A DNA stretch of 64,000 bases from positions 64,001 to 128,000 of IMG/VR virus record IMGVR_UViG_3300033121_001553; one strand, written 5' to 3'. Positions 3,125 to 63,988 of the stretch are shown piece by piece (the first letter of the stretch is position 1; each line of letters starts with the position of its first letter). The stretch comes from a virus (Duplodnaviria; Caudoviricetes). The position numbers were made by a program, and so were the translations under genes. A model generated the notes under the pieces. The model made no database searches, was not told the origin of the DNA, and worked only from the letters and a program-made list of their open reading frames with translations.

Positions 3125-4605
3125 CTCTTTTCGCCTGCCAACGTTTCAAGCTTTACACCTTCGTCTGACATTTCTTTCCACTTTGCACGAAGTTTTGACT
3201 TCATGTCTTCTTCGTCAGACTGTCTCACCATCTCAGGTGTCACGTTCTCACCAACTACTGCGAACTTTGAATGCGCTGTATCGATAGAAACATTCCACAA
3301 AAGCCCATCGCGGCCTGCACGATTTTTCGCTATAAACATCCTACCAGTGCCAAGTGACTTCTCAGCAGATTTTCTTGAAAGTGAAATAACAACATCTGTG
3401 ATGAAAGCTTTGCTATACGACTCTGACATGTTGGTCAGATCGATAACATCAGCGTTGCTGCCGTCTCTGTTGGACTGCGAAGCTGTAATAACTGGCACTC
3501 TTTGCTCAACAGCAAGACCGCGCAGCTCTTGATAGATAAGCGCAAGCTCATGTCGAAGCGCATCGTACTGTCTGGTGCTACGCATGATATCTGCGTAGTC
3601 AACGATGATAACATCGGGTACAAAACCCTTTAGCGCGAGTCTTTCGATGTGAGAACGTAGCGTAAATACGCTCGCAGTATTCGGTGGGTAGCTCGCTATC
3701 TTCAAAGATCCAAGTGAAGCAGCATTCTCTGCGTAGTACTGCTTAACAACGTCTTTATTTTCAATGATGTCATCGCAAGCGATTCCAGTAAGGTTCGCAT
3801 CGTAACGCAAACCGATCTGCTCAGCGCTAAGCTCAAATGTAAAATGAAGCACATTTTTCTTTTGCTTCAATGCATTTGCGCCAAAAAAAGTCATAAAGTG
3901 CGACTTGCCAGCGCCAGACGGTGCAATGATAACAATAATCTCGCCCCTTCCAAGGCCACCATTTAGCACGCCCTTTGCATCAAGTTCTGGCATGCCTGTG
4001 CAGATACATTCGCGCTTCATAGCAACGAATCTGCTGTCCATGTCTTCTATCAAGTCGTGACCAAGACTTGACGGCGAACCAACAACAACTGCGCGCTTTA
4101 CAACATCAACGATAGACTCGTACTTATCGACATCCATCAAGTCAACAGCTTTTTCAAGCGCAGACTTAAGTGCCTGTTTCTTGCAAAAGTCTCTTGACTT
4201 GTCTTTAACATAAGCAAGATCTGAAGGATCTGGATTCTGCTTGATACGCTGAACATAGTCGATGACATTATCTCTCATCGCAATGTCAACTGTTGTACGT
4301 AGCTCATCAGCAACGATTGTAATGAGCAGCGGAAGCGTTGGAAATGTCTTGTATTTCCTGTAATGAGAGAAGTACCTCTCGACAAGATAACGAAGATACT
4401 TTAGCTCGAAGTGCTCATGCGTCATCACCTCGATCATCTCGCTTGCCCACTGTCTATCGGCGAAAAGCGCTTGGACAGTTTTTTCTTGAAATGTTTTACC
4501 GTACTGTCCAAGCGTAGCTACTGTTGTAGTCACTTCGTCTTCTGTCGAAACTTCAGCAGGAGATGTATCTTCAATTTCGTATTCTGTCACGCTAACTGCT
4601 CCCAT
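3121..4605 (-). CDS. DnaB/gp41-like replicative helicase
   Basis: Walker A APSGAGKS, HFTFELS, IIVDYAD, TASQSNR, AKNRAG. Alternative GTG start at 4590. Confidence 0.92.
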   Translation of the reverse strand: MGAVSVTEYEIEDTSPAEVSTEDEVTTTVATLGQYGKTFQEKTVQALFADRQWASEMIEVMTHEHFELKYLRYLVERYFSHYRKYKTFPTLPLLITIVADELRTTVDIAMRDNVIDYVQRIKQNPDPSDLAYVKDKSRDFCKKQALKSALEKAVDLMDVDKYESIVDVVKRAVVVGSPSSLGHDLIEDMDSRFVAMKRECICTGMPELDAKGVLNGGLGRGEIIVIIAPSGAGKSHFMTFFGANALKQKKNVLHFTFELSAEQIGLRYDANLTGIACDDIIENKDVVKQYYAENAASLGSLKIASYPPNTASVFTLRSHIERLALKGFVPDVIIVDYADIMRSTRQYDALRHELALIYQELRGLAVEQRVPVITASQSNRDGSNADVIDLTNMSESYSKAFITDVVISLSRKSAEKSLGTGRMFIAKNRAGRDGLLWNVSIDTAHSKFAVVGENVTPEMVRQSDEEDMKSKLRAKWKEMSDEGVKLETLAGEKR

Positions 4606-5540
4606 TTTCCACCTTTAATTCCTGCAAGCGATTGAAAAAAACTATCCGCTTCAAACACACCAGCGCCCAACGATACAAGCAACTTGATAAATTCAAGCTT
4701 GTTAAATGTACCATCATATAGTTCTATAGAGTCGTCTATTTTTTTTATTTGCGAATGCGTTAGCATCGAGCCGTCGAGCTTCACAAGTCTCAAATTAAGC
4801 TCAACCTTGTTCCACTCGTCTATAACACGTTTGTAAAGCGCGCTATCATCGCTGTGCGACATGCTGTAAAGCTTTATTTCATTAAGCGAACATTCGTTAT
4901 CTGTTGTTACGATTGGAAACAACTTTGTGAATGTCTTGTAGCCAAGTCCACGCACACCTTGAACATTGTCTGATGTGTCTCCGCACATAGCTTTAAGCAC
5001 AGCAAAATTTTTCGAATGCACGCGAAAACGTTCGTAAACTTCAGCGTCTGTTACGAAGCTTTTCTTCTTTATATTGTAAACACGCGTTTTTTCGTCTATC
5101 AGCTGGTAGTAGTCCATATCTGACGAAGCAATGATCTTTTCTTCATCGCGAAAATTAAACGCTAGACGTGCAATTATGTCGTCTCCTTCGCAATCTTCAA
5201 CATAAACTTGCATAATTGGAACGCAACGAAGCATTCTTATGAGATGCGAAAGCTGCCAGTCACGATTTTCCTTCGTTTCTGGTATGTCATCTTCATAAAA
5301 ACGATTCAATTTTTGTGGTTTACGCGTCATCTTGTAGCCGCCATCTAGATTACGACGACGTCTTGAACCGCCGCTCTCCCACGCAACTGCTATTCTTGTT
5401 GGGTGCGTTTCATTTATGATCTTTGAAAGCATCTTCAAAAATCCAACTGTACCACCCATATGCTGCCCAGTAGTTGACACATTTGGAAATGCAGAAAATG
5501 CTGTGCAGAACAGATTCAGTCCATCGATAAGAAGAATCAT
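4593..5540 (-). CDS. RNase H / flap 5'-3' exonuclease (T4 Rnh-like)
   Basis: MILLIDGLN, EGDDIIA, SSDMDYYQL, GDTSDNVQGVRGLG (H3TH). Start moved to ATG 5540 because a promoter and an in-frame TTA lie just upstream. Ends TTA 4593-4595 (standard code: TGA 4587). Confidence 0.9.
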
Positions 5541-5547
5541 GCAATGT

Positions 5548-5649: not shown

Positions 5650-5657
5650 AGATTTTT

Positions 5658-6131
5658 TAACGTTCCTGAAGAACCGAGTCCGCCGATACCACGAATTCCG
5701 TTGGATCCGCCAGAGTAATCAGTAGATGTAATGTTCTCTCTGTACCATTCCAGTGATCGATGAACTATATCAATCTTTTCGTACACTTGCGGTATCATCT
5801 GCGCGATACGATCACCTTTTGCAACGCGTAGCTCTTTATTTGTAACGTTTCTAAGTGCTACGATTATTTCTCCTGTGTAGCCAGGATCGATAACTCCTCC
5901 AACAGCGATCAACCCGCGTGCCGCCATTGAAGAACGAGACTCAATCTTCATGTAAAAATTCCCATTGACAACAATCGTTCTTATGCCAGTGTTGATCTTT
6001 TCACATTCAAATGGTCTGATGACATAGTCATCAAGCGCGTACAAGTCATACCCAACATCGTTATGATACGCTTTCGTTGGAACGATGGCTGAATCGTTCG
6101 TGACAACAATGATGAATGACTTTTCATTCAT
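5658..6131 (-). CDS. dut: Trimeric dUTPase
   Basis: GYDLYA, SRSSMA, GVIDPGYTGEI, GDRIAQ and C-terminal RGIGGLGSSG. Probable start ATG 6131 overlapping the recA stop. Ends TTA 5658-5660 directly after motif V (standard code: TGA 5634). Confidence 0.93.
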
Positions 6132-7314
6132 TCTCTGGGTCCTTTTCATCATCAACTGATCCAGCGTTCTCGTTAGAGGGATCGACAAAGCTATTCGCGT
6201 AAGCGGCATCGATTGCTTCGTCAATGAACAACGAGTACTCTGGATCTTTAATGATAGTATCAAAATCAGCTTTATGAAACTTCTTTTCAACAAGATGCTC
6301 GCCAGTTTGATTACTTGTTACGAGCAACTGCTTCCATGCTTGCTCGCCTTCGATCCTGATCTCGTAGTCCTTTGACTTCACAGGTCCATGCTGACGTAGA
6401 ACATCAAAAATTTGCTCGTGCTCAACGATGCCCTTGCCAAAGTGTATCTCAAAGCTAACTTTTCGATAGGGAGCTGAGATCTTATTCTTTTTGATGAAGG
6501 CATTAACTTCAATGCCGTAAATCTCTCCTGTCTTTGGATGTTTGAGATGACCGCCGCCTGTCAAGCTGATTCTCACGGAAGCGTGGAACGGTATGGCCAT
6601 ACCTCCCGGTGTGACGTTTGGATCACCGTACATAACACCGATCTTTTGTCTTATCTGGTTACAACAAAACATCAATGCGTTTGTATCACCAATGATGCCA
6701 GTTATCTTGCGCATCCCCTTGGAGATCGTACGCGCCTGTAGGCCTATTGTGCTTGAGTCGTAGTCACCCTCAAGCTCAGCTTTTGGAGACGTAGCTGCGA
6801 CAGAGTCCCAAACAACGAGTATTGGTGCTTTCGATGTACTGGCGAGATCTTTTGCTTTCAGTACTGTCTTCTCAGCTATCGTAAAAACTTCTTCTGTACA
6901 ATGGGTATCGCAGTACACAAATCGCTTCGATACATCGATACCCATCATCTTTAGCTTTTCGATAGACGTTGCGTTCTCGGTATCGATATAAACAACAAGA
7001 CCGCCCATATTCTGTATGTTTTGGGCAGAAGCATACGCTATATGCGACTTACCAATGCTCGGCGGGCCAAAAATCTCAACGATTCTTCCCACAGGAAGCC
7101 CTCCGCCAGATCGACCTGCGATTGCGTAGTCAAGCTGACGAGAACCTGTTGACACCCACTGCTTCACTACAGTTGGAGCTTCATCTGACGATAGGTTGAA
7201 TGCAACACGCTGACCCATGTCTTTGTTGAGACTAGAGATCAGCTCGGCCGTGAAATCCTCAACGGGCTTCACGGCCGAATCTGTTGCATCCTCCCGCTTT
7301 TTACGAGGAGGCAT
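6124..7314 (-). CDS. recA: RecA/UvsX recombinase
   Basis: GGLPVGRIVEIFGPPSIGKS, YIDTE, VWDSVAA, NQIRQKIGVMYGDPNVTPGG, KNKISAPY. Confidence 0.95.
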   Translation of the reverse strand: MPPRKKREDATDSAVKPVEDFTAELISSLNKDMGQRVAFNLSSDEAPTVVKQWVSTGSRQLDYAIAGRSGGGLPVGRIVEIFGPPSIGKSHIAYASAQNIQNMGGLVVYIDTENATSIEKLKMMGIDVSKRFVYCDTHCTEEVFTIAEKTVLKAKDLASTSKAPILVVWDSVAATSPKAELEGDYDSSTIGLQARTISKGMRKITGIIGDTNALMFCCNQIRQKIGVMYGDPNVTPGGMAIPFHASVRISLTGGGHLKHPKTGEIYGIEVNAFIKKNKISAPYRKVSFEIHFGKGIVEHEQIFDVLRQHGPVKSKDYEIRIEGEQAWKQLLVTSNQTGEHLVEKKFHKADFDTIIKDPEYSLFIDEAIDAAYANSFVDPSNENAGSVDDEKDPENE

Positions 7315-7341: not shown

Positions 7342-8142
7342 TAAGCTATTTCCACCAAGCTCTGCTAGAGCAGCATCAAGATCAGAAACTGTCTTCTGCT
7401 TCTCAGCCGGTGCACGTGCAGTCACAGCAAGATCAGCGACAACCTTATCAAGGCTATCAACTTGGGAACCTGCACGCTCGGTTGTCTCCTCTGACGGAGA
7501 CATCCAACGCTCAAGCAGTTCCTTGAGCTCTTCGTACGTTGGATACGTAACAATATCGGACGTTTGCGGCATATTTTCAAGCCACTTCTTTTCTTTTGCT
7601 TGATCTTTCGTAAGAACAGAAGGCTTACGTGCTGCATCGACAACAACATCAAGCGTCTGCTTACCTTGCCACACTCTGCCTGAAGGCTTCAGTGTGACAG
7701 TCAAGTCATACCCTTCCTTCTGATGAGTGAAGTCACCGATTTCTTCATTCGTGAAGAATGAAAGCAAGCGATCATAAACGTTCCTATTGAACGACCACAA
7801 CATCCAACCGGCGTCTTCATTCGCTCGATCAATGATCAAAGCGTATGTTGTCATCTTCGGATAGAGTTGCTTGCACAGTTCTCTATCTTCTGGTCTACCT
7901 GTCTTTTGAAGCTTCACGATAAAGTCATGAATTGGATCAGGCTTGCCAAGCTGGTGGAGCGTTGCCTTTCTACGCTCTTTACCAATATAGTAATAATGAA
8001 CCTCACGAAATGGAAGCCCATTTTCAAACCACGGAAGCACACGAACTTTGTATTCACCCTGCTCTGGTTTCCAGAGCGGAACACTAGAGCGATTATTCAA
8101 CGAGTTGATCTTCTTCTTAACTGCTTCGAGATCTAGCGGCAT
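7342..8142 (-). CDS. gp32-like single-stranded DNA-binding protein
   Basis: LWKP..GEYKVRVLP, GKPDPI, GDFTHQKEGYDLTV, acidic C-tail DLDAALAEL, next to recA. Ends TTA 7342-7344 (standard code: TAG 7330). Confidence 0.8.
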
Positions 8143-9550: not shown

Positions 9551-12331
9551 TCACTTTACAGCACTTTTAAGATCTTCATTAACACGCTGAATTGCTCTAA
9601 CGAACGACGTGTAACGTGGATACGCATCATTGAAACTTAGTTTCCACGACGTTTCGAATTTTCCAGACGCTATCGTATGGCTCAATGACGTAACGATGTA
9701 CATGTTGTCAAGCGTGGTACCAGTTCCAAAGTCGAAAAAGAATTTTTGTGCAAATGAGACAAGCGGACATCCAACTGTTACCATCGTAAGTTCACCTGGA
9801 TACACAAGCATGGGCACACCGCCAACACCAGAACCGTTTGGCTCAACAGGGTTGCTACGTCCTTGAGACTTCATATTACCAGCTGCAATAAGCTGATTCT
9901 GCTGCGACGATACGCTTATCGACTTGATCATTGAATTATTCGTTCCCCACGTGATAGTTGGAACAATTTGCGTTATTGCGCGTTTTATGACGTCAATGTT
10001 ACCATCGACGTGAACGTACTCTGCGCCGTCGCCACCAGTCTTTGTTTCGATCTTGACATCAAAGCCGCCAGACGAGAGTTTCTCGCTTAGTTCTTTTATC
10101 TTTGCGATGAATGGTCCACGTTGCTCCTTCAACGCTCCATCAGACACGAAAGCATCTGGCTTAAGCGTAAGCTGCTTCAGTATGTGGTCTACGGGACCGT
10201 ACGGTTGCATCTGCTTATCGAATACATGCAACCGTAGTATCTTACTTCCCTCGTATACTGTCGATCCGCTATCAGCGATGCGCATTCTTGGAAGCGTTTC
10301 AAGATGCATGTGAACAACTGGAAACGCAAACGTGCCACCATACTGCTTCAGTTTTTCATCAAGTGCGCTTGTAAAGGCTTTGGTATCTTTATACTTTTTC
10401 TTATCAACAGCTGGTTCACGTTGTTTAGCAGTACGTGGCATGTACAGTTCTGCAAGACCGTATCCATCGCTTCTGTAGTCTTTGAGAAAGTTGTCGCTTA
10501 CGAATGTAAGAAAGTCGTATATCGACATATCAGACGCTCCGCTATCTTTAAGCCTCTCAGAGAACAGTTCTTTGAATAGTCCAACGTCTATCGGAAAGTC
10601 ACCGATATTTCTTGAGCTTGCCGCACCGCACGTAGAACCGAACGTGTAGAAGAACAGCTGCGCTTCTTCGATACCATCGTACTGCGATACAGCAGGACCA
10701 AGAACAAAAACGGACATCACTTGAGAAAGAGAAACGTACTTCAAAGGTTTTCCAGCAACGTTTTGTTCGTAGAATTTCTCGAATCCTGGCGCGTCTGCCG
10801 GCGACTTAACGTAAGCGTCTTTATTAAGCAAATCTAGTTTGTTACTGATACGTCTCTTTATATGCTGAGCATGTCTTTCCTTCAGCGAAAGAACTTTTTT
10901 CTTGTCTTTGTCGTCAGGGTCTAGGCTGAATGCTTCTGTGATTTTATCAGATAGCTGTTTTGCAGCTTCATTTATTTGGCCTGTCGCAGGTTGCCCTTTA
11001 CCATTATCAGACTTCCCATCAGGGCTCTTACCAGCAAGCACATTCTTCAATTTCTGTACAGCTTCTTGTAGCTTATTGCCTTCCAGATCAGATGGCAGCT
11101 CTCCGCGAGATGCTGCTTCAAGCAGCTGAGATGCGCGCAAGTCTGGCATGAAGTCAAGCTTCATTTGCGTACGCACCTCCTTTGAAAGCTCAGTTATCTC
11201 CTCAAGCACATTTTGAAGATTAGTAGTGCCACCAACTTTTATTGCATGAGTCTCCGTTGCGCCTTTCATCGCAAGATCCAGAGAAATCTTTATCTGACCG
11301 GCTGGATCCAATGCATAAGTTGCTGATTTTACGCCATAAATCTCACGGCATTTTAGTGTATTCATGAATTCACCATAAACGCTTGAGTTGACATCGTTGT
11401 CAGGATGCTGCCAACCGTACTCTATATCGATGCTTGTTTTCGCGTAAAAGTCTGGCTTGATCAAATCTGCAATCTCGGTCAATCTTGAACGATCATGCAG
11501 TATGATTTCAAGCTTTGCAGTTTTGTACGCAAGAGGACCAGTCATCGACACAACATTAACGCTAAAATTTTCTATAGACATCAGCGGACGTGTCTTGTCA
11601 AGAACAGGAACGTATCTGTTCGACGGTACGTAAACCTCGTCAAGGTTCAACAGCGTTTGCGGTGATGTGAATAGATCCATAGCTGTCTGCGTGACATCGA
11701 TCGCTTTTTTTCCAATCAACGCTTGCTTTTTTACGCCAGCAAGCAATTTATCAGCCGACTTTTGATCGACAGGCGCGCCGCCAGAGAAAAATTTGATAAG
11801 TGACGTCCCGACAGCACGACCCATGTGATCGAGCGGAGCGCGTGGCAGCTGCATTCGTACATCTATGTACGGCATACACCTAGCGAGTTCTATCGACGGT
11901 ATCGCTTTCATGAACGTTGTTATCTTGTTTACGTTTCTAACGTTCATTGATAGATACGGTACATCACATTTCACAACGCAAGATTTTCTAGATAGCGGTA
12001 CATTAATACCAATAGCTACGGCAGTTTCATATACCTCAGTTCCAAGTCCTTGCACTATTCCAACAGAAGTATAACAACGTAGATACTTCTTGAGATTTTT
12101 ACCATCATCAGATCTAGCAAATTCTTCTATCTGACTCTTTATGTCGTCTGAACCTGCGACGCCGTCTGAACGTGAATGAACCAATAGCTCAAGCAAGAAT
12201 TCAAGCGCACCGTCGCTACGATTTTTTGACGGATCTGCATTGAGCTGTGTTACAGCGGGATCGTCTACAAACTGCGTTAGATCTTTTGGTCTAAGATAGT
12301 TGTAGAATCTTTCTAGAGAGCCAGCAGGCAT
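9551..12331 (-). CDS. Large virion protein, probably baseplate hub-like
   Basis: 926 aa, downstream of the LysM/gp53-like gene. IEYGW motif and C-terminal GCP...YIVTSLSHTIASGKFETSWKL resemble hub/GPD-type proteins. Position-based call. Confidence 0.55.
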   Translation of the reverse strand: MPAGSLERFYNYLRPKDLTQFVDDPAVTQLNADPSKNRSDGALEFLLELLVHSRSDGVAGSDDIKSQIEEFARSDDGKNLKKYLRCYTSVGIVQGLGTEVYETAVAIGINVPLSRKSCVVKCDVPYLSMNVRNVNKITTFMKAIPSIELARCMPYIDVRMQLPRAPLDHMGRAVGTSLIKFFSGGAPVDQKSADKLLAGVKKQALIGKKAIDVTQTAMDLFTSPQTLLNLDEVYVPSNRYVPVLDKTRPLMSIENFSVNVVSMTGPLAYKTAKLEIILHDRSRLTEIADLIKPDFYAKTSIDIEYGWQHPDNDVNSSVYGEFMNTLKCREIYGVKSATYALDPAGQIKISLDLAMKGATETHAIKVGGTTNLQNVLEEITELSKEVRTQMKLDFMPDLRASQLLEAASRGELPSDLEGNKLQEAVQKLKNVLAGKSPDGKSDNGKGQPATGQINEAAKQLSDKITEAFSLDPDDKDKKKVLSLKERHAQHIKRRISNKLDLLNKDAYVKSPADAPGFEKFYEQNVAGKPLKYVSLSQVMSVFVLGPAVSQYDGIEEAQLFFYTFGSTCGAASSRNIGDFPIDVGLFKELFSERLKDSGASDMSIYDFLTFVSDNFLKDYRSDGYGLAELYMPRTAKQREPAVDKKKYKDTKAFTSALDEKLKQYGGTFAFPVVHMHLETLPRMRIADSGSTVYEGSKILRLHVFDKQMQPYGPVDHILKQLTLKPDAFVSDGALKEQRGPFIAKIKELSEKLSSGGFDVKIETKTGGDGAEYVHVDGNIDVIKRAITQIVPTITWGTNNSMIKSISVSSQQNQLIAAGNMKSQGRSNPVEPNGSGVGGVPMLVYPGELTMVTVGCPLVSFAQKFFFDFGTGTTLDNMYIVTSLSHTIASGKFETSWKLSFNDAYPRYTSFVRAIQRVNEDLKSAVK

Positions 12332-12627: not shown

Positions 12628-15624
12628 TCAACTCTTCTTGTCATCCGGTGGAACACTCTTTCCAGCCATATTACCAACTGGATACACAAATGCTCTGTTG
12701 AAACCATTATGATCGATACCTGGCGCGATGTCGTGGATCGGAGAGATATCCATCGTTACTTTAACGCTCATTGGACCGCGTGATCCCGGCGTAACGCTGA
12801 ATGTTCTTCCTCCGTCGCCTACGCCCCAGTCGAATGCAAGCGACTCTATCACGCATGCGAGTCCTTCACCACCAGCCGATCTGAATGATCTAACGATAGC
12901 ATTCTTCTCATGTGAGAAAAAATCTTTGATCTTCTCAGATGCTTCTTGACCTGACTTCTTTGTATCGAAAAATTTAGGCGTCCATTTTATAAATCTCAAC
13001 GGAATACGATATTTTGTATTGTAAGCTCCCTCTATCGCATTCTCAAGATCTTTAAAACGTCCTTTGTACTGTTTCTTTACTCTAATTTTCGCATCATAGC
13101 TGTAATTCCCATTTGTAGTAATACCAATGTCGCTTACAGCAACATCAGTTAGCTCAATAAACTGTATCCAATGACCTTTAATATTGAGCTCAGACTTATC
13201 TTCTTTGCTGACACCTGGGATAGAAGGCATACTTACGCCTATTCCACCTTCTGACGGTTGAAATGTTACACCGCTCGCATTTTCTTTCAATTCAACGTAA
13301 TAATCATTACTATTTATGTTATTAAGCAAAACATCACTTTGCTCTTGAAAGTCTTTGGCTGCTGTAGCAGCGTCTAGTTTTTCGCCTTCGATTGCAAAGT
13401 CTTTCATACCAGCGCCAAACAAACGTGCGAGAGCAAACTTTGTGTAGTTTGAGCGTATCAAGTCGCCAAAACGTATGCGTACAAGCGGTCCTGTAGCTGG
13501 TACTTGCGTAAATGGTTGTACTATCGTTGTTTTGTCACTTGATGATAGTACATCACCCTTTGTCCACTGCGGATAAACAAGTGTTGTAAGCTTGTTTATC
13601 TTCAGCCACATCTCGTCAAAGTCTGACTCGCTTGTTGCAACGATCCAAAATGACATATTGATTTTTCGTGCTGTTGTTTTGTATATCTTCACAGAGTCAA
13701 CACGTCCGTACATATCATTTGATTCGTACTGAGCTGCGTATGAGTCTGTCAACGACGTAACAAAAGCATGAAATGACATTATCTCGTTTGTGCGTAGATC
13801 GTGAAAATAGAATGGAAAATAATGAGAATCAAGCTCTTTTTCCATTGCTTCACGTGTTTCTACATCGATTCGTGTTACTTCATCTTTAACTCTTTGAACA
13901 AGAACAGATGAGTTATTTCGCGCGCCAGCTTCCTTCAAAGCGACAAGCTCTGGTGAAATCCCACCAATACCACGCAGTAGTACACCAGCGCCAAGCACAG
14001 CTTGTGGCATCAAGTAAATTGCTGCAGCACGTTTCTGAGCCCACGCGAGCGTGTGTCCATCTCGCAGATAGCTCTTAGCAACGTGCTGAGCTCCATCATC
14101 GTACCTATTTACGTCCCACGAAACGCTCTTCAACGAATCCTTATTACGCTCAAGCTCAGCATCACCAACTTTACCGAAGATGTTTATCACAGCGATTATC
14201 TTCGATGACTTGATAACGTTCATGATAGCGCCGATGCCTTCAACAATTCCAAGTGGATCTGTGATGCTGAAGCTATCTGCTATATTACCAATTGACGTGC
14301 CTATCTGATTTGCAGATCTGAACAACATTCTGAAGAATACGATGTAGTAGCCAGGATTGTTTGCAATAGAGTCTGCTCTTGGCTTCGTTAGCGGAATAGG
14401 CAACTGACCAAGTGGATTCAGCAATTCTATCAAGCTGTCCATACCAAACGTTGCAGCCATACCTTTCTCTACGGCTTTATCAAGAGGATTAACAGTAGGC
14501 GTAATACCGATCGCATTTAGTATTGAACTTGATAGCTTGAAACCACTGTACACTTCAGGCTGCACATTTTCGCCAAGTGGTCTACGACCTATTCGTGTAA
14601 TATCTCTTTTTTCCCACTTGGAACCGCCACCGTTCGCAGGTATCAAAGAAAGTATTTTTGTAAGAACGAAGATAGATACTACAGAACCAAGCAACAATGC
14701 GTACGCAAGAGTAGCTTGCGCGATTGGCACAAGACCGTCGAACGGTTCTTCCGTCGTATTCATCGATCCGTAAGAATCGCTATTGTACGAAGTAAGACTG
14801 TCTGGATCTTTCGGGCTAACCTGTCCCTGCTGCTCAGCGTTATATAGCCTTGCAAGTGCTTCTTTAGCATTGAAGTTATCAACATTCGCTTTCAAGATAC
14901 CCATTTGAACAGCGCCCGGCAACAAGTTGCCTGCGGAGTTCGCTTCTGGATCGTATCCGTATTCGTTTGAGTCGAGTTTACCAGCAGCACGCTGCGACAG
15001 CAAGCTACCGATTTTTAGCATTGTATTTTGACGTATTGGCGTTGGGCGTGTCAAGAAGTTAGACACTGTCGACTCAATGCCGAGCGTTGGATCTTTATCG
15101 CGCTTTGTAAGCTCGTCTACGCCAGAGCGTCCAGTAATGTTCGTAAAATGAAGCGCTGGATTTTCATCAACGCCGCGAGCGATGTCGGGTCTATAAACGT
15201 TTGCTCCAGACTTCAACAGCTGATCAACGTATTTCGTCCCATCGGGCTCGTCTGCTATAACCTTCGATGCTGGAACTTTACCAGCATCACCAGTACGTTC
15301 TCTATCGATCGTTCCTGGATAGCCAAGCCTGTTGTACGATTCGTGTTGCTGAAGTCTTGCAACGTCCACGTACGCACCTTCGCCAGCGAATGTTCCGTAT
15401 ACAGTCGAAGTCTCTATATTCGTTTCCATTGTAAATACGCTCGGTTTGTACTGATTTACCTTCAGTTTTGTCTTTATGTAAGAACCGATCGTTTCACGTG
15501 TCTTTTTACTTATGTCGTCGCCTTGAACGACACTTACAGCAGCGCGCTCTTCATTGCTACGATCTGCCCCAGTATCGAAAACAATCTCTACGGGACCATT
15601 TTCAGTCTCTATTGTTGACGGCAT
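12628..15624 (-). CDS. Large baseplate/tail-tube-initiator-like protein
   Basis: 998 aa. C-terminal FHAFVTSLTDSY...YGRVDSVKIYKTTARKINMSF...PLVRIRFGDL resembles tube-initiator folds. Follows the tape measure. Confidence 0.55.
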   Translation of the reverse strand: MPSTIETENGPVEIVFDTGADRSNEERAAVSVVQGDDISKKTRETIGSYIKTKLKVNQYKPSVFTMETNIETSTVYGTFAGEGAYVDVARLQQHESYNRLGYPGTIDRERTGDAGKVPASKVIADEPDGTKYVDQLLKSGANVYRPDIARGVDENPALHFTNITGRSGVDELTKRDKDPTLGIESTVSNFLTRPTPIRQNTMLKIGSLLSQRAAGKLDSNEYGYDPEANSAGNLLPGAVQMGILKANVDNFNAKEALARLYNAEQQGQVSPKDPDSLTSYNSDSYGSMNTTEEPFDGLVPIAQATLAYALLLGSVVSIFVLTKILSLIPANGGGSKWEKRDITRIGRRPLGENVQPEVYSGFKLSSSILNAIGITPTVNPLDKAVEKGMAATFGMDSLIELLNPLGQLPIPLTKPRADSIANNPGYYIVFFRMLFRSANQIGTSIGNIADSFSITDPLGIVEGIGAIMNVIKSSKIIAVINIFGKVGDAELERNKDSLKSVSWDVNRYDDGAQHVAKSYLRDGHTLAWAQKRAAAIYLMPQAVLGAGVLLRGIGGISPELVALKEAGARNNSSVLVQRVKDEVTRIDVETREAMEKELDSHYFPFYFHDLRTNEIMSFHAFVTSLTDSYAAQYESNDMYGRVDSVKIYKTTARKINMSFWIVATSESDFDEMWLKINKLTTLVYPQWTKGDVLSSSDKTTIVQPFTQVPATGPLVRIRFGDLIRSNYTKFALARLFGAGMKDFAIEGEKLDAATAAKDFQEQSDVLLNNINSNDYYVELKENASGVTFQPSEGGIGVSMPSIPGVSKEDKSELNIKGHWIQFIELTDVAVSDIGITTNGNYSYDAKIRVKKQYKGRFKDLENAIEGAYNTKYRIPLRFIKWTPKFFDTKKSGQEASEKIKDFFSHEKNAIVRSFRSAGGEGLACVIESLAFDWGVGDGGRTFSVTPGSRGPMSVKVTMDISPIHDIAPGIDHNGFNRAFVYPVGNMAGKSVPPDDKKS

Positions 15625-15856
15625 TGCTTGCTTGGATAACTAGTTCATCTTTATTTTTTCCAGTTAGACGAGATGCAACATCAGCAAGTGGCATAATCCC
15701 GTTGTTAACCATCTGCGCAACGTAGCTACGCAAAGCTGAGACGACTTTTTCTTGCTCTTCGTTGTTTAGCTCTGCAAGCTTTGGCTTTAGCGCTACAAGA
15801 ACGTGTTCAACGATACTATCGATCGCAACTTCATTCGACTGTTTTTTAAACTTCAT
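15602..15856 (-). CDS. Hypothetical protein
   Basis: 84-aa ORF filling the gap between the tape measure and the next gene. Confidence 0.6.
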   Translation of the reverse strand: MKFKKQSNEVAIDSIVEHVLVALKPKLAELNNEEQEKVVSALRSYVAQMVNNGIMPLADVASRLTGKNKDELVIQASNAVNNRD

Positions 15857-15874
15857 CGTGTTAGATAATAATCA

Positions 15875-18800
15875 TCAGTCGGGCAACGAACCTTCATTCT
15901 TCAGATCTGTTGCTGGGAATCCTTCTTTCGTTTCGTACGCTGCATTCACTAGGTGCTGACGTATCACGGAAGACTTACGCTTGATGATCACGTTTTCGAC
16001 CTTACCAGCTTCCATCGTAACGTTCAAATTGACGTTTATAACAACGTCTTTGTTCTGTATCTGGTAGTTGAACTTACCACCGAGCCCAACACCTTTTGCG
16101 ACGGCTTCAAGCTTCGCTGGAACATTGATCGTGTTGAGCTTTCCATCAGCTAGAGTATCATTAAGCTCATTTACTCGCTTAATCATATCAGAAACTGCAG
16201 AAAGCGAACGTTCAATACCACCAGACTTTATCGCATTACCAATCTTCGTCAGTTTCTCAGACGCAGAGATGATGTCAGCTGCGAATGAATCACTAAGAGT
16301 GAACGAAATTATCTTGATGTTATCAGACATCATTGCAAATGAGCTTGTATCAACTTGAGTCATTTGCACCGTTGCTACTTCTCCCATCGCAGATGCGAGA
16401 TTACGCATTGAAAGCAACGCATCTGATACGCTGGTAGAAATTTGCTTGACTGTCTGAACTGTGCTTTCAAGCGTACCAACAACACCGCTTGACTGCGAGA
16501 ATAGCTCGAATACGTTCATCTTTGACGTAAGCGTGCTAATGAATCCTTCAATAGACGATGAGATACCCATCAAAACATCACCTATGCTAGTGAATGCTGT
16601 ATCTGCATTGTCTACGTTCTTTGGAACGCTCTTTGTCGCAGAGCTCATCGAAGAAATAAATCCACCGAACGATGTAATGGCTTTCGAGATAGCATCGATT
16701 TTTGAGATATCTTTGCTCGTAAGCTGTTCTGCACCAGCGATAAGCGAATTTATGATCCCGCCAGTCATCGCCGGTAGCAGCTCTTTCATACCTTCAAGAT
16801 ACGTTGATATAAACTTACCAGCCGCACCGATCGCATTAGGATCGATGCCTGCTGCAAGCGCGCCGCCGCCAACAGAAGACTTCAGCGTTTCAAGCATCTT
16901 ATCAGATGGCATGATAGACTTCAAAACATTAGCGAAGCTTGACATGATAGAACCCATGCGTTCCATCTTCGTCAAGTTTTCGTCTGTGATCTTTGCAAAT
17001 TCAGGCGAGTTCATACGTCCGATGATCAAGTCGATAACTGTGCCGATCTTTTGTATCATCGAGCCAGCGAAGTACCCAACTTCTTCAAGCGTGTTTATTC
17101 CAGCAAGTTTTGGAAGAACTGACTTTGCGCCATCGATGATTTCACCGCTTGGCGTCAAAGCTTTCATTATCTCCGACGTTGCACGAAGTGAACTTGTCAA
17201 AAAGTTCATCGACTTCTCAAGCTCAGCAGTTACATTGAGCTCTGACGCTTTCTTTACAATCGTGTCTATCGTAAACTGCAGCGCAGATATTGTAGTACCA
17301 ACGAATGTGCCGATCTCGCTCAACGTATCAGTGAAGCTAGGTCCTATGAGACCGTATAGTTGACCCAAACCAGGCTTCGCAAGCTCGATGACAGATACCA
17401 TCGAAGATGAAAACTTACTAAATGTGTCTACAACATCAACGAAAATTTTAACTTTTGGACCTATTACGGATGGCTCCGGAAGCTGTTCTATCTTTGTAAG
17501 AAGATTTTTAACTTGCTCTACCATCTGCTCGCTAAATGCAGACACTGCTTTTATGCCAACGACTATTGATACAAAAGTGAACGGATTCATCGTTAGCAGA
17601 CCGACACCAGACATTGCGATAATAGAAAGTCCCAGTGCACCAAGCGTTACAGCTAGACTGCGCATCAACGATGTACCACGCTCTATTTTACTAATTTCGT
17701 CATCTTTCATGTCTTTGAAGACAGCGCCAATCATCGTAATCCCAATGGCGAATACTCCAATCGTTGCTGCAATACCAGCGAGTGCTCCACCAATCACGCC
17801 AGCGATCGCCGCTCCACCGACACCAGACTGAACAGCAACAGCTATGATACCGCCTATCACACCAACGACTGCCGTCATTGGCACCATTGCAAGAGCAAGC
17901 TTAGCCATGATGCCAACTCCCTTAGAAAGTGTATCAGGGCTTACGCCCATCGCATCTATCGCTTTCATCGCAACGCCAATGATAAACATATTTGTGCTAA
18001 ACGTCAACGTGATACCCGCGATAGTGAGCAATGCAGTACCGATATCTTTCGCTGAGGTGTCTTTCATACGTTTAGCAAGTTCATTAAGCGCTGCCATACC
18101 AACGATCATACCGCCAAGCGTTATCATCGTTTTCGTAAGACTACTGAAAGATACATCTTTCAAAATATCTGCAGCTTCTTTTACACGCTTTGCTAGTGGT
18201 ACAAGCCCGATGTATATCACTATGCCGACAGCAGCAAGTTTCATTGCCATCGTTGCTGCTTCTGCAGCGCCGAACTTTACCTTGCTCATAGCACTTTGGG
18301 CCTTTGCAGTTTGTTGAACTGCTGTAGCTGCAGCTGGCAAATCCTTTGCTTGCTCAGCAAGATCTTTTGCAGTTGATCCTGCATTTGCCGCTGCTGTTGC
18401 AGCCGACCCAGCTTTTTTAGCAACTGCCTCTTGTTTTTTTGTCGCAATCAAATTAACAATACCGGTCGCAAATGCACCAGCGCCTGCAGCAAATACAGAC
18501 TGCATAACAGCCGGACCAAACATTGCCAAGCTAAGGTAGATCATTGCTTTTTTGATCTTTGACTGCACGCTTGGCTTATTGAAATAATCGCCTATTTTAT
18601 CTGTTATGATGTCAAACAAACTCGTAAATGCATCCCAGAGTCCACGCCAAGCATCACTCTTTATAAGCTTGATGATCGGATCAAGTATCTGCATCAAGAT
18701 ACCTTGCGCACCAGACGTATCAAGTGAAAAATCACCTGTCTTAATGAAGTCTATAAGTTTACGAATACCTTCAGTAAGTGTACGTGCGCCCCACTCAAGA

Positions 18801-20876: not shown

Positions 20877-21147
20877 CTAGGTGAATCTGCGTGTTCTCGT
20901 TGGCGCGTGAGGATTTGTCATTCCCTGAAGTGCTCTTACGTCTGGACTATTCTGATGTGCTGCACGTGTTCTTGCGCCGCCATCATCACCATTTTTATTT
21001 ATCTCTTTGTTGATTCTTTCAATCCACCATTGCTTCATAACAATTGGCATATTGTAACCTTCGATGTACGAGAACCCACCGTAGTACATGAGATTGAAGA
21101 TGGGCTCCCATATAAGGCTAGCTTTATTTTCTGGCTGATGGCCAAAG
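20877..21147 (-). CDS. Tail assembly chaperone second ORF (gpT-like), probably reached by +1 frameshift
   Basis: Frame is open upstream of ATG 21089 as TFFGHQPENKASLIWEPIFNLMYYGGF, overlapping the end of the upstream gene. Confidence 0.65.
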
Positions 21148-21981
21148 AAAGTTTATTCCGATTGGAATGCTAACCTCCTGATCGGCTCCACACTTCGAGC
21201 ACGTACAGTTCTGTTTTGTGTCTACGCCAGGTTCGTTCGAGTCAATAAACTCGCGCAATGCCAAACTATCTCGTGCAGGCATGTTTTTTATGAAGCTGAC
21301 TGTGTGATGACCAGCCTGCACACCAGCTATTGATGTTACGCATGATACAAGCTTTGTTGTAACGTTGCTATCGATGCGTGATCCAAGCTTTTTTGCTGCT
21401 TCTTGCGTCTTCGTAATATTGTCTTCATCGTAGCCAGTCAGAAACTTGAACATTACATCTCTTTTCGTAACCGGTAGAGTAAATTTAAACTCGTTTACTC
21501 CTTGTGTTACTGGCTCGATCATGAGACGCTTCAGACCGAGCTGCGCTAGATCAAATACATATTCGAATTTTTCTGAGCATTCGTTGCATGTGATCTCAGC
21601 TGAATAGTCGGCGCCGTAGCCAGTAATTCGCACTGCGAACATGAGCGCAGTTTTATCACCAGAGAGCATGCTATTCACGTCTATTCGCTTGTCAACAAGA
21701 CAACTCTTAATGAGCTCGTTAATGACAGTGCCCTTCTTCAGCAACGCTCTGCTCGTAAGAATGTCTTCTTCTCTTGTCGTCATAGGCCTAATGTCGACAG
21801 TCTCGCACATGTGTAGAGCATTATCAGGTGAATAGATAACGCCTCTGCTTGGAATCGGTACGGTCTCTTGCGGTATGTCCAAACCAAGCTCAGCGAGCAG
21901 TTCATCGTTTGACTTCGTTTTTACGTTATTTGCTTGAGCGCTTTGTAGAACAGCTGGATTTATTCTATCTGATGACATCAT
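21124..21981 (-). CDS. Tail assembly chaperone / T4 gp26-like baseplate hub assembly protein
   Basis: PIPSRG, IRPMTTREEDIL, CxxC pairs (CNEC, CSKC), C-terminal FLWP. Lies between tail tube and tape measure. Confidence 0.75.
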   Translation of the reverse strand: MMSSDRINPAVLQSAQANNVKTKSNDELLAELGLDIPQETVPIPSRGVIYSPDNALHMCETVDIRPMTTREEDILTSRALLKKGTVINELIKSCLVDKRIDVNSMLSGDKTALMFAVRITGYGADYSAEITCNECSEKFEYVFDLAQLGLKRLMIEPVTQGVNEFKFTLPVTKRDVMFKFLTGYDEDNITKTQEAAKKLGSRIDSNVTTKLVSCVTSIAGVQAGHHTVSFIKNMPARDSLALREFIDSNEPGVDTKQNCTCSKCGADQEVSIPIGINFLWPSARK

Positions 21982-22629: not shown

Positions 22630-22971
22630 TTATAGCGGACTCCACTTTGACGTTTGCTTCGTAAAACGCATTGGCTTATAGCCACGTACTCTTGGCACAG
22701 CTTCAATGTAATTTGTTCCATCATCATCAAATTCATTTTTGAGATGATAAAAGTCCAGCACCTTGTCGCTTGGTATATTAAGCTCCTTAGCGAGAGATGC
22801 AGCTGCATCAGCGTTTTGTCTCTGCTCGGCGTCTTGTCTACCGACATTGTACTTTGTGCTGCCAGCACTGCTTGGAGCACCGCCTGTGATACCAAGATTG
22901 CCGATTTCGCTTAGTACTTCTCTGATTATTCTTTTTACGTCTTCTTCTCTAACAAATCTTTTTGACTTCAT
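22630..22971 (-). CDS. Hypothetical protein, putative head-internal protein
   Basis: N-terminus VKRIIREVLSE. Confidence 0.6.
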   Translation of the reverse strand: MKSKRFVREEDVKRIIREVLSEIGNLGITGGAPSSAGSTKYNVGRQDAEQRQNADAAASLAKELNIPSDKVLDFYHLKNEFDDDGTNYIEAVPRVRGYKPMRFTKQTSKWSPL

Positions 22972-34866: not shown

Positions 34867-34871
34867 ATGCA

Positions 34872-36813: not shown

Positions 36814-36843
36814 TTTTACTTTCCAATCTCCTAAGTTGTGAGC

Positions 36844-45420: not shown

Positions 45421-45864
45421 TAACGTAAAATCATACGTTGCTGTACGAATCACATACGCAATTCTGCGTGGATTATGTTGCATCGCAGAAATCGTTTGCA
45501 GAGTATCCTCAGCGCCAACAAACTTGATCTTCAAGTCTTCATCGGCTATCTTCTTGTACTCACGTTTGATTCGTGCTACCTCTGAGTCTATAACGCTATC
45601 AGCTTCATGTATTGCACGCTCTTTAAGCATGTAGCGTTCATTTACGCTGCTGTAATTAACGACTGCAGTGTATGTAATAACAAGTCTTTCACCGACTATT
45701 TTTGACTTCACGGATGGACCGACAAGATTAGCAGACGTTGACGGTCTTGTGAAAGTTGTGTCGATTACTTGTCCAAGCGCATACACATCGTATCCAGCGT
45801 TAGCGCGTACTGTAGCTTTTTTCTTATCAGGCATGTCAATATGTATCTCCAAATGATGCGCCAC
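45421..45864 (-). CDS. Hypothetical protein
   Basis: ORF upstream of the terminase. Ends TTA TCA TAA. Confidence 0.65.
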
Positions 45865-50247: not shown

Positions 50248-50820
50248 TCACTTACAATATGTTTTTTTAGCAACAGCAGCCATTACAACAGCGTCTGACT
50301 CATCATAAGCCCACGAATATGGTTTTTCTGTCTTCTTATTTATCCAGTCATCGACTTTGCTGGGATAGCGTTTCAAGTTATCGTCGAATACGTCTTGTTT
50401 CTTATTCTTTGATCCTTTAATATTTGGATAACCACATTTTTTTCTGCCATGCGACACTGACACATGACAAAACTTGTAGTCGTATGATGAGTGCACCTCT
50501 GTAAACAGCTTATGCAGACCGTACGTTATCATACCATTGAAAAACTGCAGCTTGGATATTGTACCTGCCGATGTTCTACCTTGCGCGTACGCTTTTGCTG
50601 GTTCTTCAATGCACAATGATAGTTTTAGCCTACGCGTTGATAGATTCATCAGTGAAAGCATGAACTCTGCAATGACACGATCAGCAAAATTTACAAGTTC
50701 CTCATCTTTACTTCTGCTCACGTGAGTTGTCACAAGCTTATCATCGCAAAAGAAAGCAATGCCAACTGTCGTTGTTGATATGTCAAACCCGGCGTAAACC
50801 GTCGCGTATTCCGCATTCAT
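50248..50820 (-). CDS. ruvC: RuvC-like Holliday junction resolvase
   Basis: GFDISTTTVG, CIEEP, DESDAVVMA. Confidence 0.78.
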   Translation of the reverse strand: MNAEYATVYAGFDISTTTVGIAFFCDDKLVTTHVSRSKDEELVNFADRVIAEFMLSLMNLSTRRLKLSLCIEEPAKAYAQGRTSAGTISKLQFFNGMITYGLHKLFTEVHSSYDYKFCHVSVSHGRKKCGYPNIKGSKNKKQDVFDDNLKRYPSKVDDWINKKTEKPYSWAYDESDAVVMAAVAKKTYCK

Positions 50821-51196
50821 TCTTCGCGATCATACCATCTGTCGCAAAAATGTACACTGCATTGTTCCAACGACACCAAGCTTCTGCGAACTTTGACTTT
50901 TTGATAACACCAACTTTTTTCAATCTTGAAGTTGGTTTAATTTCAACAATGTAAAGTTTACCTGCTTTCGTTAGAACAGCAACGTCTGGCCAGTACACTC
51001 TAGTTCTTTTACCTACTCTGTACGGTATACCAAACGGTTCGTAAACGTACGCTGCGATACAGTCATTTGAGTCAAGTAGCTGCATGTAATCGTATTCTAG
51101 CTTAGAACGTGTTAGACACTCAAATCCAACAAGCTTCCTTGACACATGCTTACATCTTTTTGGCGTTCTATTGCTTTTTTTTCTCTTTGCTGCCAT
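50795..51196 (-). CDS. TnsA-N/T4 gp4-like head completion nuclease
   Basis: RSKLE, YEPFGIPY, YWPD, VEIKP. Ends TTA 50795-50797 (standard code: TGA 50783). Confidence 0.78.
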
Positions 51197-53517
51197 AAGT
51201 AATCTATTCTTGGCTTAAACACAATTGACTGACTGAATCGTTTTTCTATCGGTTGCGCAAGATGAGCTCTGATCACGACATTGAAATTCGAGTCATGAAA
51301 ATTGATTCGCGATATCTTCACGATGGGCTCATCTTGAGCTGCGTATCTGTAGCTAGATGTACCATAGACAAAGTTTGTATTTGAAGATGTGTTGTAATGT
51401 CCCGCAGGAGCAATAGCTGTTAGCTTTACAACGTTAACATCACGTGAACCTTCAAATTCCATACCATAGCTATCATTACCAAATGGGTAAAGATGCGGTG
51501 ACTTTACGAATACTATACCTTGCTCGTAAAAGATATTACCAACGCTGTTCCAAGCTGATGCTGATGTTACGCAGTTCGCTCTGTAAAGATTACCGTTACC
51601 ATCGTCACGTAGCAGAACGCTTAGCGCTCCGTTCGTTCCAGAAAGGCTGCTGCTAAGCTTGAACGTACCAGGCGTTATCTTGTCACCGTAGTACAAATTG
51701 CTAATGCTAAAAACAGTGATTTGATTTGAATTACTATCTTTTGTTCTGTTGAATATCGTTAGAGCGCTACCTGGAGCATTTTTGATGTCTCCTGTTTCTG
51801 GCGCAACACCACCTATCACCTTGTCTATGCTAGATGTTGCTTGTATAAATCTTCCAGCAAGCAATGAAGAAGTAGATATCAAATCACGAAGATTTATCCA
51901 GCTGCCATCTGATGTGTCTGTGGAGTCACGGTAGTGGTTGTTGGCAGCTGTTACGTACGTTGATATAACACCAAGATTCGGTATGTAGTTACCGTCATCG
52001 CATGGTAGAATCAAAAGATTTCTCGCGATGAAACTCCCGCTTTGGTACAGAAGATCGTTAGCTGGAGCTGCAGCTGTTGTAGTTGAAATCTCATGAGCTA
52101 GCATGTTGTATGCTAGCGGATATCGTTTTGAACCAAAGTCATACAGAAAATTTTCGATATTTATTAGATGTCCGCCAACAGAAAACGCCAGCGATGTGTT
52201 AAAAGGTGTTTCTGTAGATCCGTCTGACGCGTAGAAAGGCGTTTCGAGAATGCCGCCGTAACCATCGACTGCGCTTCTCGTTGGACTCGTTGGAATGAAA
52301 TAAGGTGGAAGATAGAAGGCAACATCACGCATGTCGCTGCTACCAGTGCACGTCATTTCTTCAATTTCACGATTTGTTACGTATCGTTTGATGATCTTCA
52401 AATCATGAATTTCAGCACGCAGTCTGTGTCTAAAGTTGAAATTTGCGGGCTCTTCTGTCGCTGGCGTTGTAGTGACATTTATAAGTCCCTCACGCGTTGA
52501 TGGATTTGTCGCAAACCACAGTGCTTGAGCATTTCCACCTGTATTATTACCCTCATAAAAATTTCCAACAAACAACGCGTTTGAACTCAAACTGTTCAAC
52601 GATGACGATGGAACAACGAATGTTCCTCTTAGCGTACCATCTACGTAAAAACTACCAGTTCCACGATCACGTGAATTCGTACCCCATCGTACAAGCACAT
52701 GATGCCACGCGTTAAGTTTCAAACAGTCATCTGAGTAAAATGCTAGATCACGTGGATACGCTGCCGCAACGCTTGGGTTTAGCTCGCTTGGTCTCTTTTC
52801 TGCTGTACGTTCTAGCTGAAGTGCTACGCGAAACGTATTTGCTCTACCGTACTGATCACGTCCAGATCCAGTTATAAGAGACAAACAGTAGCTAGACGAT
52901 ACATGCACAATAGCGCCAGCAGTAATTGGCACAGATGAATCATCAGCTGAATTTGGTTTTATGTACGTTTCTATTGTGAATGCACCAGTGACGGTGTACT
53001 CGCTACCGGTCATTGGGTAGATAAGAACAGACGCAGTTGGTACATTCGAGCAAGAAAAGAAATTAAGACAGTTGTAATTCGTATAAGCATACTGCGCTGC
53101 ATTCGAGTATAGTCTCTGTTCACGCAGCAAGCTATTCTTTACAAGTGACTTAACAGCAAACTTATCATTGTACACAAATCCTGGTACAATTCTATCAATC
53201 AACTGCGTTGCTGAATTTCTTCTGCTTTGGTTACGACGATTTACTTCGCTCATATAAGCAGACATTACGCTTGCGTTACTGCTGCCAACACGACCGAGCA
53301 AAGACGCCTTCTTCAGTATATCGTCTATCGACTGATCGTTAGCTGCGCTATCACCGAGGCTCGACGATAGAGAAATGTCTTTCTCTATCGTCGAGCTTCT
53401 ACCGAGCACAGTCAGAGAGCCAGTTACACCAGTTGAGCTGCTAACGTAGACGCGCTTTGGATTTACGCGCAGCGCGTAGATCTCAACATCGTTTTGCGTC
53501 AAACGTTGCGTTGTCAT
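51196..53517 (-). CDS. Virion protein with LamG/concanavalin-like domain
   Basis: FTIETYIKP, AWHHVLVRW, FYVDG, LFVGN, IHDLKI. C-terminal AHLAQPIEK...PRIDY then TTA overlapping the next ATG (standard code runs to 51112). Confidence 0.75.
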
Positions 53518-63115: not shown

Positions 63116-63133
63116 CAACGTTAATAATCATTG

Positions 63134-63988
63134 TAACTCGAATTTGATGCTAAACAACTTACAGAAACACGTAACGTCACTTGAATTTACATACAATTTT
63201 CCAACAATGTACGTTGACTTAGCAACCCTATACGCACTAAGCTTTTTTATTTTACCACCAGACACTTCAAAAAATTGAAATAGCAAACGCTTTTTTTCAT
63301 CTTGGCTGAAGTATACTTTTTTTGTTGCAATGTCAGTACCATCAGTCATTAGCACATTTTTGTAAATTACACCTGTGCTTTTTTTTGTATCGCCATCTCT
63401 ATATGTCGGTGGAAGATAAGAAAAATTCACAAGTTTCGCAAAACGTTTATCTTCTATCAATGTAGGTAGATCGTCGATAGACATACCATCGTACTTTGAC
63501 TTTACGTCATCGTTGATCTTAAAAATCACTTTTTGATCAGATGTATTAAGATCATTTTCGCTTGAAAATTCATCATGCGTGTACAGCAGCTGAAGCTTTC
63601 TGAAAGCTTCAGCTGAAGATTCTACGATATCGCCTACAATCGCTCCGAACGCTGCAGATGATGTAACGGGTGAGTAGACGCCATCTGACCCTGATAGTAT
63701 CTCTCCGGACCTCACTGTGTACGAGTTAAGCGACTTGAATGGCTGCAAGCTTCCAAAGTCATCTGTCACGTATGTAATAAGATCGTGTGGTTGCGATGTC
63801 GACGCTTCAAGATGAGGATAAGTCGTAGTATCAACTGTTCCGCTTACAAGATCTTTAGCGTACACAACATCAGCATCACTAAACGTAACGTAAGCTAGCT
63901 CCATAAGCCCTGATGCCATCTGACGTCTTCCCTCGTCAGTAATAACGACATCCATCACTCTTGTCTTTGGATCTAGTATACCGCTCAC
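63134..63988 (-). CDS. Virion (baseplate-associated) protein, paralog of 54723-55439
   Basis: MSGILD...MDVVITDEGRRQMA...VTFSDADVVY. GTG start. Ends TTA CAA TGA. Confidence 0.65.

Follow-up and report, generated by a model that had tools for sequence, protein, structure and literature searches.

In the T4-like bacteriophage to which the stretch of DNA analysed here belongs, the leucine codon UUA very probably ends translation, next to UGA and UAA and with UAG being hardly used. The stretch, further called the window, is 64,000 nt long and corresponds to G000:C1:64001-128000, G000 being the IMG/VR contig IMGVR_UViG_3300033121_001553 of 186,819 bp. Coordinates refer to the window unless they are prefixed. 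Several independent lines of evidence at the DNA level show that TTA terminates reading frames of this phage, on either strand and whatever the class of gene. The T4-like character of the phage is illustrated by its Gp23 major capsid protein (34924-36813, minus strand, Pfam E 3e-79) and its Gp20 portal protein (41199-43295, Pfam E 2e-66). The closest cultured relatives are Microcystis phage Mel-JY01 and the Flavobacterium 'immuto' phages, with a capsid identity below 60%. Nearly all window genes are carried by the minus strand, meaning that an in-frame TTA appears as 'taa' on the plus strand. A preliminary description of the window had proposed TTA as a fourth stop codon, partly on the basis of such plus-strand positions at 15 of 48 gene ends. 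All 15 are indeed in-frame TTA codons on the minus strand at gene ends, and when an independent caller of open reading frames (ORFs) takes TTA as a stop, precisely these codons close 15 of its 47 minus-strand genes.

The genome was closed by exact-protein look-ups, walking outward from both ends of G000. The two walks converge in an overlap of 108 nt with 100% identity, giving a composite circular map of 273,334 bp in which all junctions (10/10) were verified. G000 makes up approximately 68% of this closed map. The CheckV completeness of 52% reported for G000 is therefore too low, as the map closes at 273,334 bp. The GC content is 43% in G000 and 45.0% in the closed map. Sequence of the phage is present in sequencing runs of seven studies, covering wastewater, sludge and bioreactors. 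Among the variants listed for four runs (>99% identity), none is located at a TTA stop. Moreover, the same TTAs are found in separate assemblies, and the same genes recur in several JGI and Logan assemblies.

In-frame TTA and gene ends

The first line of evidence is the distribution of TTA within reading frames. The preliminary description had found no TTA inside the genes it read and predicted that internal use would be close to zero, with a spike at 3′ ends. Counts in both the window and G000 bear this out. Within the ORF bodies of the window there are no in-frame TTAs at all. When stop-to-stop frames are taken according to table 11, the window contains 29 TTAs, which are located before a start codon, at most about 30 codons from the end of a frame, or at the scaffold/capsid junction. 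Other leucine codons number 1,562 in these frames, i.e., 326 TTG, 538 CTT, 179 CTC, 279 CTA and 240 CTG. In G000, TTA occurs 69, 899 and 377 times in frames 0, 1 and 2, respectively, and 44% of the in-frame TTAs are within 30 codons of a canonical stop, compared to 7-11% for nine other codons. Only 22 TTAs are found among the 40,456 codons in the cores of long frames of G000 (approximately 0.5 per 1000), and those that were traced turned out to be gene junctions or antisense frames. In 44 related loci with a GC content of 41-45%, TTA is used 3.4-26 times per 1000 codons, with a median of 10.9. At this median rate approximately 440 core TTAs would be expected, and even at the lowest rate of the relatives the probability of the observed count is approximately 1e-33. 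After splitting the genes at TTA, no gene of the window or of G000 has an internal TTA, and the cover by ORFs is retained. An in-frame TTA at a leucine of a conserved domain, which the preliminary description had named among the cases that would speak against a stop, was searched for and not found.

The second line of evidence comes from gene calling. Adding TTA as a stop changes the ORF cover of G000 from 0.926 to 0.932, so that the four-stop code covers as much sequence as table 11, a comparison suggested beforehand. With CTA, TTG or ATA as a stop, the cover of G000 falls to 0.23-0.35. For the closed map, the cover is 0.93 with TTA as a stop, versus 0.53-0.88 for six other sense codons. The four-stop code predicts 412 ORFs of at least 60 aa on the closed map, of which 184 end on TGA, 117 on TTA, 90 on TAA and 21 on TAG. 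The fraction of TTA is 26-31% in each gene-length class and approximately 28% overall. TAG ends only one of the 137 genes of at least 200 aa. It is found solely before starts or at gene ends, neither TAG nor TGA occurs in frame inside genes, and the ORF cover gains nothing when TAG or TGA is given a sense meaning. The distance from a TTA to the next canonical stop in G000 is distributed like the distance from one canonical stop to the next (KS p = 0.999), which indicates that the sequence following a TTA behaves as non-coding in that frame. In G000, 67 genes end on TTA, and in 10 of them a canonical stop follows immediately. Overlaps of 1 nt between a stop and the following start take the form TTATG in seven cases and TAATG in four. 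The gene spacing described earlier for the window (gaps of 4, 4 and 11 nt, and 1-nt TTATG overlaps) was found as stated.

Thirdly, homologues end where the TTAs are located. In all 78 relatives of the capsid comparison (78/78, offset 0), the protein ends in NII or a variant thereof and the next codon is TAA, TGA or TAG, while a TTA takes this position here and in the related locus L003. For genes with at least 10 homologues, most homologue stops are 0-3 residues away from the TTA, as is the case for canonically ended genes. No sense codon other than TTA occupies such homologous stop positions. This agrees with the earlier observation that TTA falls where the dUTPase, capsid and scaffold proteins should end, and with the alignment of homologue C-termini that had been put forward to check it.

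One example is the junction between the scaffold and capsid genes. Table 11 merges both genes into one frame of 1127 aa. They are separated by TTA codons alone, in the order TTA, three codons, TTA, after which a GGAGA and the capsid ATG follow. Scaffold homologues stop 0-3 residues from the scaffold TTA, and the capsid N-terminus, MLTYQDIM, matches that of relatives from residue 1-2 onward. If TTA were read as leucine, the peptides NMNIILSIR (at the capsid end) and AGIKLAHNLGDWK (joining the scaffold to the capsid) would be produced. Another example is situated outside the window, where the convergent genes at G000 14810-15688 (plus strand) and 15742-16221 (minus strand), both ended by TTA, flank a perfect 16-bp bidirectional terminator. 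In the first gene, a canonical stop is only reached 111 nt past its TTA, beyond the terminator hairpin. The TTA-ended genes of the window are listed in Table 1. In addition, the caller kept a single plus-strand ORF of at least 60 aa in the window, a putative gene at 20907-21155 that ends on TTA as well.

Table 1. TTA stops and associated elements in the window, with the RF1-like genes of other loci (prefixed).
Feature	Position	Strand	Observation
TTA stop, 315-aa gene 4593-5540	4593-4595	-	First in-frame stop under the four-stop code; canonical TGA 3 codons on
TTA stop, dUTPase-like gene 5658-6224 (...GGLGSSGT, then TTA)	5658-5660	-	Only one homologue among the loci retrieved, with its stop at offset 0
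TTA stop, 266-aa gene 7342-8142	7342-7344	-	Four-stop ORF call
TTA stop, gene 22971-23249	22971-22973	-	1 nt (TTATG) shared with start of next gene, 22630-22971
TTA stop, 1000-aa gene 23738-26740	23738-23740	-	TAA directly after; homologue stops within 2-4 residues
TTA stop, 219-aa gene 31068-31727	31068-31070	-	11 nt to next start; 23/25 homologues stop 0-2 residues off; table 11 adds 16 codons
Predicted intrinsic terminator, hairpin GGGAGGCGA-ATTA-TCGCCTCCC plus T-run, just 3′ of capsid gene	34871-34900	-	Read from sequence
TTA stop, Gp23-type capsid gene 34924-36813 (...VLNMNII, then TTA)	34924-34926	-	Canonical stop at same position in 78/78 relatives
Scaffold/capsid junction: TTA 36844-36846, second in-frame TTA 36832-36834, Shine-Dalgarno GGAGA 36827-36831, capsid ATG 36811-36813	36811-36846	-	Read from sequence
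TTA stop, 204-aa gene 38300-38914	38300-38302	-	4 nt to scaffold gene start; TTA kept in L083; L003 orthologue ends TTA
TTA stop, 84-aa gene 38954-39208	38954-38956	-	Homologues at offset 0-1; kept in L083
TTA stop, 285-aa gene 40287-41144	40287-40289	-	4 nt to next start; L003 orthologue ends TGA; L083 keeps TTA
TTA stop, 147-aa gene 45421-45864	45421-45423	-	Homologue stops: 8/10 at offset 0, 2/10 at +1
TTA stop, TnsA-like endonuclease gene 50795-51196	50795-50797	-	Single homologue at offset 0
TTA stop, 773-aa gene 51196-53517 (...PRIDY, then TTA)	51196-51198	-	1 nt (TTATG) shared with next start; table 11 adds 28 codons
TTA stop, 312-aa gene 63134-64072 (starts past window end)	63134-63136	-	Four-stop ORF call
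RF1-like genes	L208:11106-11765; L209:9470-10075; L211-L304 at about 10001-10650		Truncated, devoid of domain 1

Relatives and distribution of the TTA stop

The TTA stop is shared by a narrow group of phages. L083, which is 98% identical and originates from another metagenome, retains the same TTA stops. L003 is more distant, with a capsid identity of 68% and a GC content of 47%, and has the same TTA pattern. The stops of orthologous genes in G000 and L003 pair as TTA/TTA, TTA/TAA or TTA/TGA, as expected of synonymous stops. A capsid tree built with FastTree groups G000 and L003 as sisters (SH-like support 99), nested in a large collection of phages with the standard code. Next in portal identity come relatives (64% and 62%) that read TTA as leucine, and L084 (G004), the nearest standard-code relative, uses TTA internally.

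A number of loci with low TTA usage, i.e., L215, L301, L225, L294, L247, L224 and L234, were considered as additional members of the clade and rejected, as they have internal TTAs and no spike at gene ends. Two of them, L215 and L301 (IMGVR_UViG_3300001199_000002 and 3300032177_000173), are jumbo-phage contigs with a GC content of 45-47% and only 1-2 TTAs per 1000 codons. They were found through their RF1-like gene. TTA is still read as leucine in these phages, for instance at a conserved leucine of the RF1-like gene of L215 itself. Their low TTA usage may represent a stage of codon loss preceding reassignment, or an adaptation to a host in which TTA usage is low.

Two scans were made for the host. 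The protein at the end of the contig had no match in a metagenome scan. A genome scan with the capsid protein returned 12 phage contigs, binned in unrelated metagenome-assembled genomes, and no clue to the host. Canonical stops end the capsid genes inspected among these contigs, and internal TTAs are used in L305 and L311.

Decoding of UUA and rival explanations

The closed map encodes 34 tRNAs, including Leu(CAA), Leu(GAG) and Leu(UAG). A tRNA-Leu(UAA), the search for which had been proposed at the outset, is not among them. The leucine tRNAs of the phage cover five leucine codons, with the exception of UUA. The purine-ending boxes of Lys, Glu and Gln are served by both U34 and C34 tRNAs, and the UUR box by Leu(CAA) only. 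The three tRNAs with a leucine anticodon (UAG, GAG and CAA; L324:3791-3866, 4042-4115 and 4732-4807, past the 3′ end of G000) measure only 74-76 nt. A Leu-like D arm and A73 are present in them, but the long variable arm of bacterial tRNA-Leu is missing, whereas the Tyr and Ser tRNAs of this array retain theirs. An amber suppressor tRNA(CUA) is located at G000 154237-154308, 11 nt after a gene for a peptidyl-tRNA hydrolase with a PTH2 domain (Pfam E 1e-11; both at G000:C1:153884-154308 or L125:3884-4308, outside the window). This suppressor is present although TAG is never internal to genes. Rfam matches are limited to tRNAs. In relatives, inspection of the flanks of the gene adjoining the array revealed no arrays comparable to that of the phage.

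A release factor was looked for as well. There is no RF-1 Pfam domain on G000, and the phage side of the release-factor search that the preliminary description had suggested gave no class-I homologue in the closed map, the best match to a hidden Markov model (HMM) of the phage RF1-like family having an E-value of 0.53 versus 1e-76 for controls. A weak PCRF match (18 bits, below the cut-off) was dropped, as it is located in the C-terminal part of the portal protein. A truncated RF1-like gene of G004 and G003 was rejected as reader of UUA, since it is widespread in standard-code jumbo phages and absent here. This family was searched in IMG/VR with both a single sequence and an alignment (Table 1). 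The truncated factor, found in many jumbo phages, is devoid of domain 1 and combines PPT (rarely PPN, SPT, PET, PPH, SPL, PQN or PPG) with GGQ. In L212, L213, L216, L218, L221, L223 and L224 its frame contains one in-frame stop near the 5′ end.

The simplest reading of these data would be a release factor provided by a host that shares the code, as the phage has no release factor of its own and TTA stops are found in all gene classes. In the infected cell, no tRNA would decode UUA, and the host factor would hydrolyse the peptidyl-tRNA at this codon. The likeliest reader would be an RF2-type factor in which reading of the second base is relaxed from A/G to A/G/U. The stops in real use, UGA, UAA and UUA, fit a single reader of this kind. 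The host would use the same four-stop code, to which the phage would have adapted. On balance, it is somewhat probable that the host is a wastewater bacterium that uses UGA, UAA and UUA and little or no UAG as stops, that it has no tRNA-Leu(UAA) and that it has a relaxed RF2-type factor reading UNA stops.

Several points weigh against this picture. Firstly, all evidence is derived from DNA, and low-level read-through of TTA is compatible with it. Secondly, both the missing tRNA-Leu(UAA) and the altered release factor of the host are inferred. Thirdly, the phage could encode a release factor of a new kind, or one that has diverged too far for the HMM. Fourthly, the closed map is a composite of strains that are 98-100% identical and come from several samples. 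Lastly, the nearest standard-code relatives, with 64% portal identity, imply a recent change, which is equally compatible with a phage-driven trait and a host switch.

A phage-driven trait would mean that the phage imposes the fourth stop on a standard-code host, by removing or outcompeting tRNA-Leu(UAA) and by bringing a terminating factor non-homologous to RF1 and RF2, while its almost full complement of tRNAs would allow the other codons to be read. This is considered unlikely, although it accounts for the restriction of the trait to a narrow clade within standard-code relatives and for a set of 34 tRNAs that omits exactly UUA. It would also agree with the presence of an RNA ligase, an AAA_33 kinase-like gene and a PTH2-domain hydrolase next to the amber suppressor tRNA, and with the truncated RF1-like factors of related jumbo phages, which indicate that the group carries termination genes. 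However, the closed map has no release-factor homologue, and small early-type genes have TTA stops as often as late structural genes. Moreover, no gene uses TTA as leucine, and genes translated before such a factor acts would be mis-terminated or extended.

A second alternative is that UUA is unassigned instead of being a true stop, with stalled ribosomes releasing the peptide by means of ArfA/RF2 or ArfB, or by drop-off followed by peptidyl-tRNA hydrolase. The phage encodes neither tRNA-Leu(UAA) nor a release factor, does encode a peptidyl-tRNA hydrolase, and the canonical stops that immediately follow TTA in 10 of the 67 genes could be taken as back-ups. The TTA-TGA cases are mostly TTATG start overlaps, though, and back-up stops are in general no nearer after TTA than after canonical stops. 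In addition, TTA ends the two most abundant head proteins and approximately 28% of the genes, for which stalling would be costly and rescue by tmRNA would tag the products for degradation. In Micrococcus luteus, unassigned codons cause stalling without peptide release. An unassigned UUA is judged highly improbable. Finally, there is hardly any room for a standard code in which TTA is an extremely avoided leucine codon, as in Streptomyces, with tails tolerated at gene ends, or for a sequencing or assembly artefact: many read-through tails would indeed be short, and L215 and L301 use little TTA at a similar GC content, but avoidance cannot put TTA exactly at the homologous stop in all capsid comparisons while no other sense codon is found at such positions, the depletion is frame-specific, read-through would fuse the scaffold to the capsid, lengthen DnaE by 40 codons and cross a terminator hairpin, and an artefact is countered by the same TTAs in separate assemblies.

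Some further genes of the phage are worth mentioning. Near the start of G000, Pfam hits (L343:1-229, L342:11503-12432 and L346:7874-8389) include an IF1-like gene (PF01176) close to the phage GroEL gene. The same region has an RNA ligase (PF09414) with the AAA_33 kinase-like gene nearby, and these two may form a pair for RNA or tRNA repair. The UDP-glucose dehydrogenase gene at L125:1031-3139 (G000 151031-153139) looks split by an intein. Its N-part ends in an intein N-region, the middle of the locus holds a separate ORF in another frame with a weak, sub-threshold match to DUF7487, and the C-part opens with an intein C-region (...VVHN, then C), after which the enzyme resumes. It may be a naturally split intein. 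The approximately 86 kb outside G000 contain mostly small genes without Pfam matches, transcribed divergently from a point near L338:9600-10000.

Comparison with known codes

So far, the known departures from the bacterial code either turn a stop into a sense codon or swap amino acids, and changes from sense to stop are on record only for organelles with tiny proteomes. The literature search identified UUA stops in organelles only, and neither in phages nor in bacteria. The preliminary description had stated that known phage recodings go from stop to sense, which agrees with this literature. In the phage, the UUA stop holds across approximately 400 genes, suggesting that large genomes are open to a sense-to-stop change too. 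If the host does use the same code, it would be the first sense-to-stop reassignment in cellular, non-organellar translation, with the phage clade as its footprint. The finding suggests that a bacterial host or factor with the ability to read UUA as a stop is still to be discovered. It has practical consequences as well. Gene callers using table 11 append false tails to approximately 28% of the phage proteins and merge adjacent ones, for example scaffold and capsid, and code predictors that only infer amino-acid meanings can miss a UUA stop. Moreover, studies of release-factor specificity, and of the genetic isolation between phage and host, gain a natural example in this phage.

The closest known systems are organellar. 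UUA is a stop in NCBI table 23, used by the mitochondria of Thraustochytrium and other Labyrinthulea (PMC12574857). This precedent, already cited in the preliminary description, has since been joined by further organellar cases: peDinoflagellate plastids use UUA and UCA as stops, and the mitochondria of Marsupiomonadales and Pseudoscourfieldia use UUA and UUG (PMC12574857). For Labyrinthulea mitochondria and peDinoflagellate plastids, substitution of Ser204 in the organellar RF2 has been proposed to permit the reading of UUA (PMC12574857). As in these codes, UUA is absent inside the genes of the phage and present only at expected stops, the genome has no cognate tRNA gene, and the other leucine codons are kept. 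The signature of the evidence, i.e., C-terminal alignments combined with codon counts, is also the one used for organelles (PMC12574857). However, organellar codes operate in small genomes, where the release factors are imported and mutated (mtRF2a or pRF2 with the Ser204 change, or mtRF1a), whereas the present case concerns a 273-kb bacteriophage that relies on bacterial ribosomes and in whose genome no release factor was found. In contrast to organellar codes, UUG remains a sense codon here, and approximately 28% of the genes use the UUA stop.

Stop-recoded phages form a second group for comparison. In crAss-like, Lak and other phages, TAG or TGA is read as an amino acid (PMC11210395, PMC10879173). 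Like these phages, the present one departs from table 11, encodes a large number of tRNAs, a suppressor tRNA(CUA) among them, and is mis-annotated by standard callers. The direction of the change is nevertheless opposite, from sense to stop, and there is no in-frame TAG or TGA inside genes. As a result, calls with table 11 give tails and fusions instead of fragmented genes.

Lastly, UUA is rare or unassigned in high-GC Actinobacteria, Micrococcus luteus with its unassigned codons being one of them. In Streptomyces, bldA and TTA codons are involved in regulation (PMC10732093). In-frame UUA is very scarce in both cases, and the outcome hinges on the presence of tRNA-Leu(UAA). A test for avoidance of the bldA type showed that the in-frame TTAs of the phage align with stops and not with leucines, and a high GC content is not the case here. 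In Actinobacteria, UUA means leucine or is left unused under GC pressure, while in this phage, with a GC content of 43-45%, TTA is common out of frame and marks the ends of genes.

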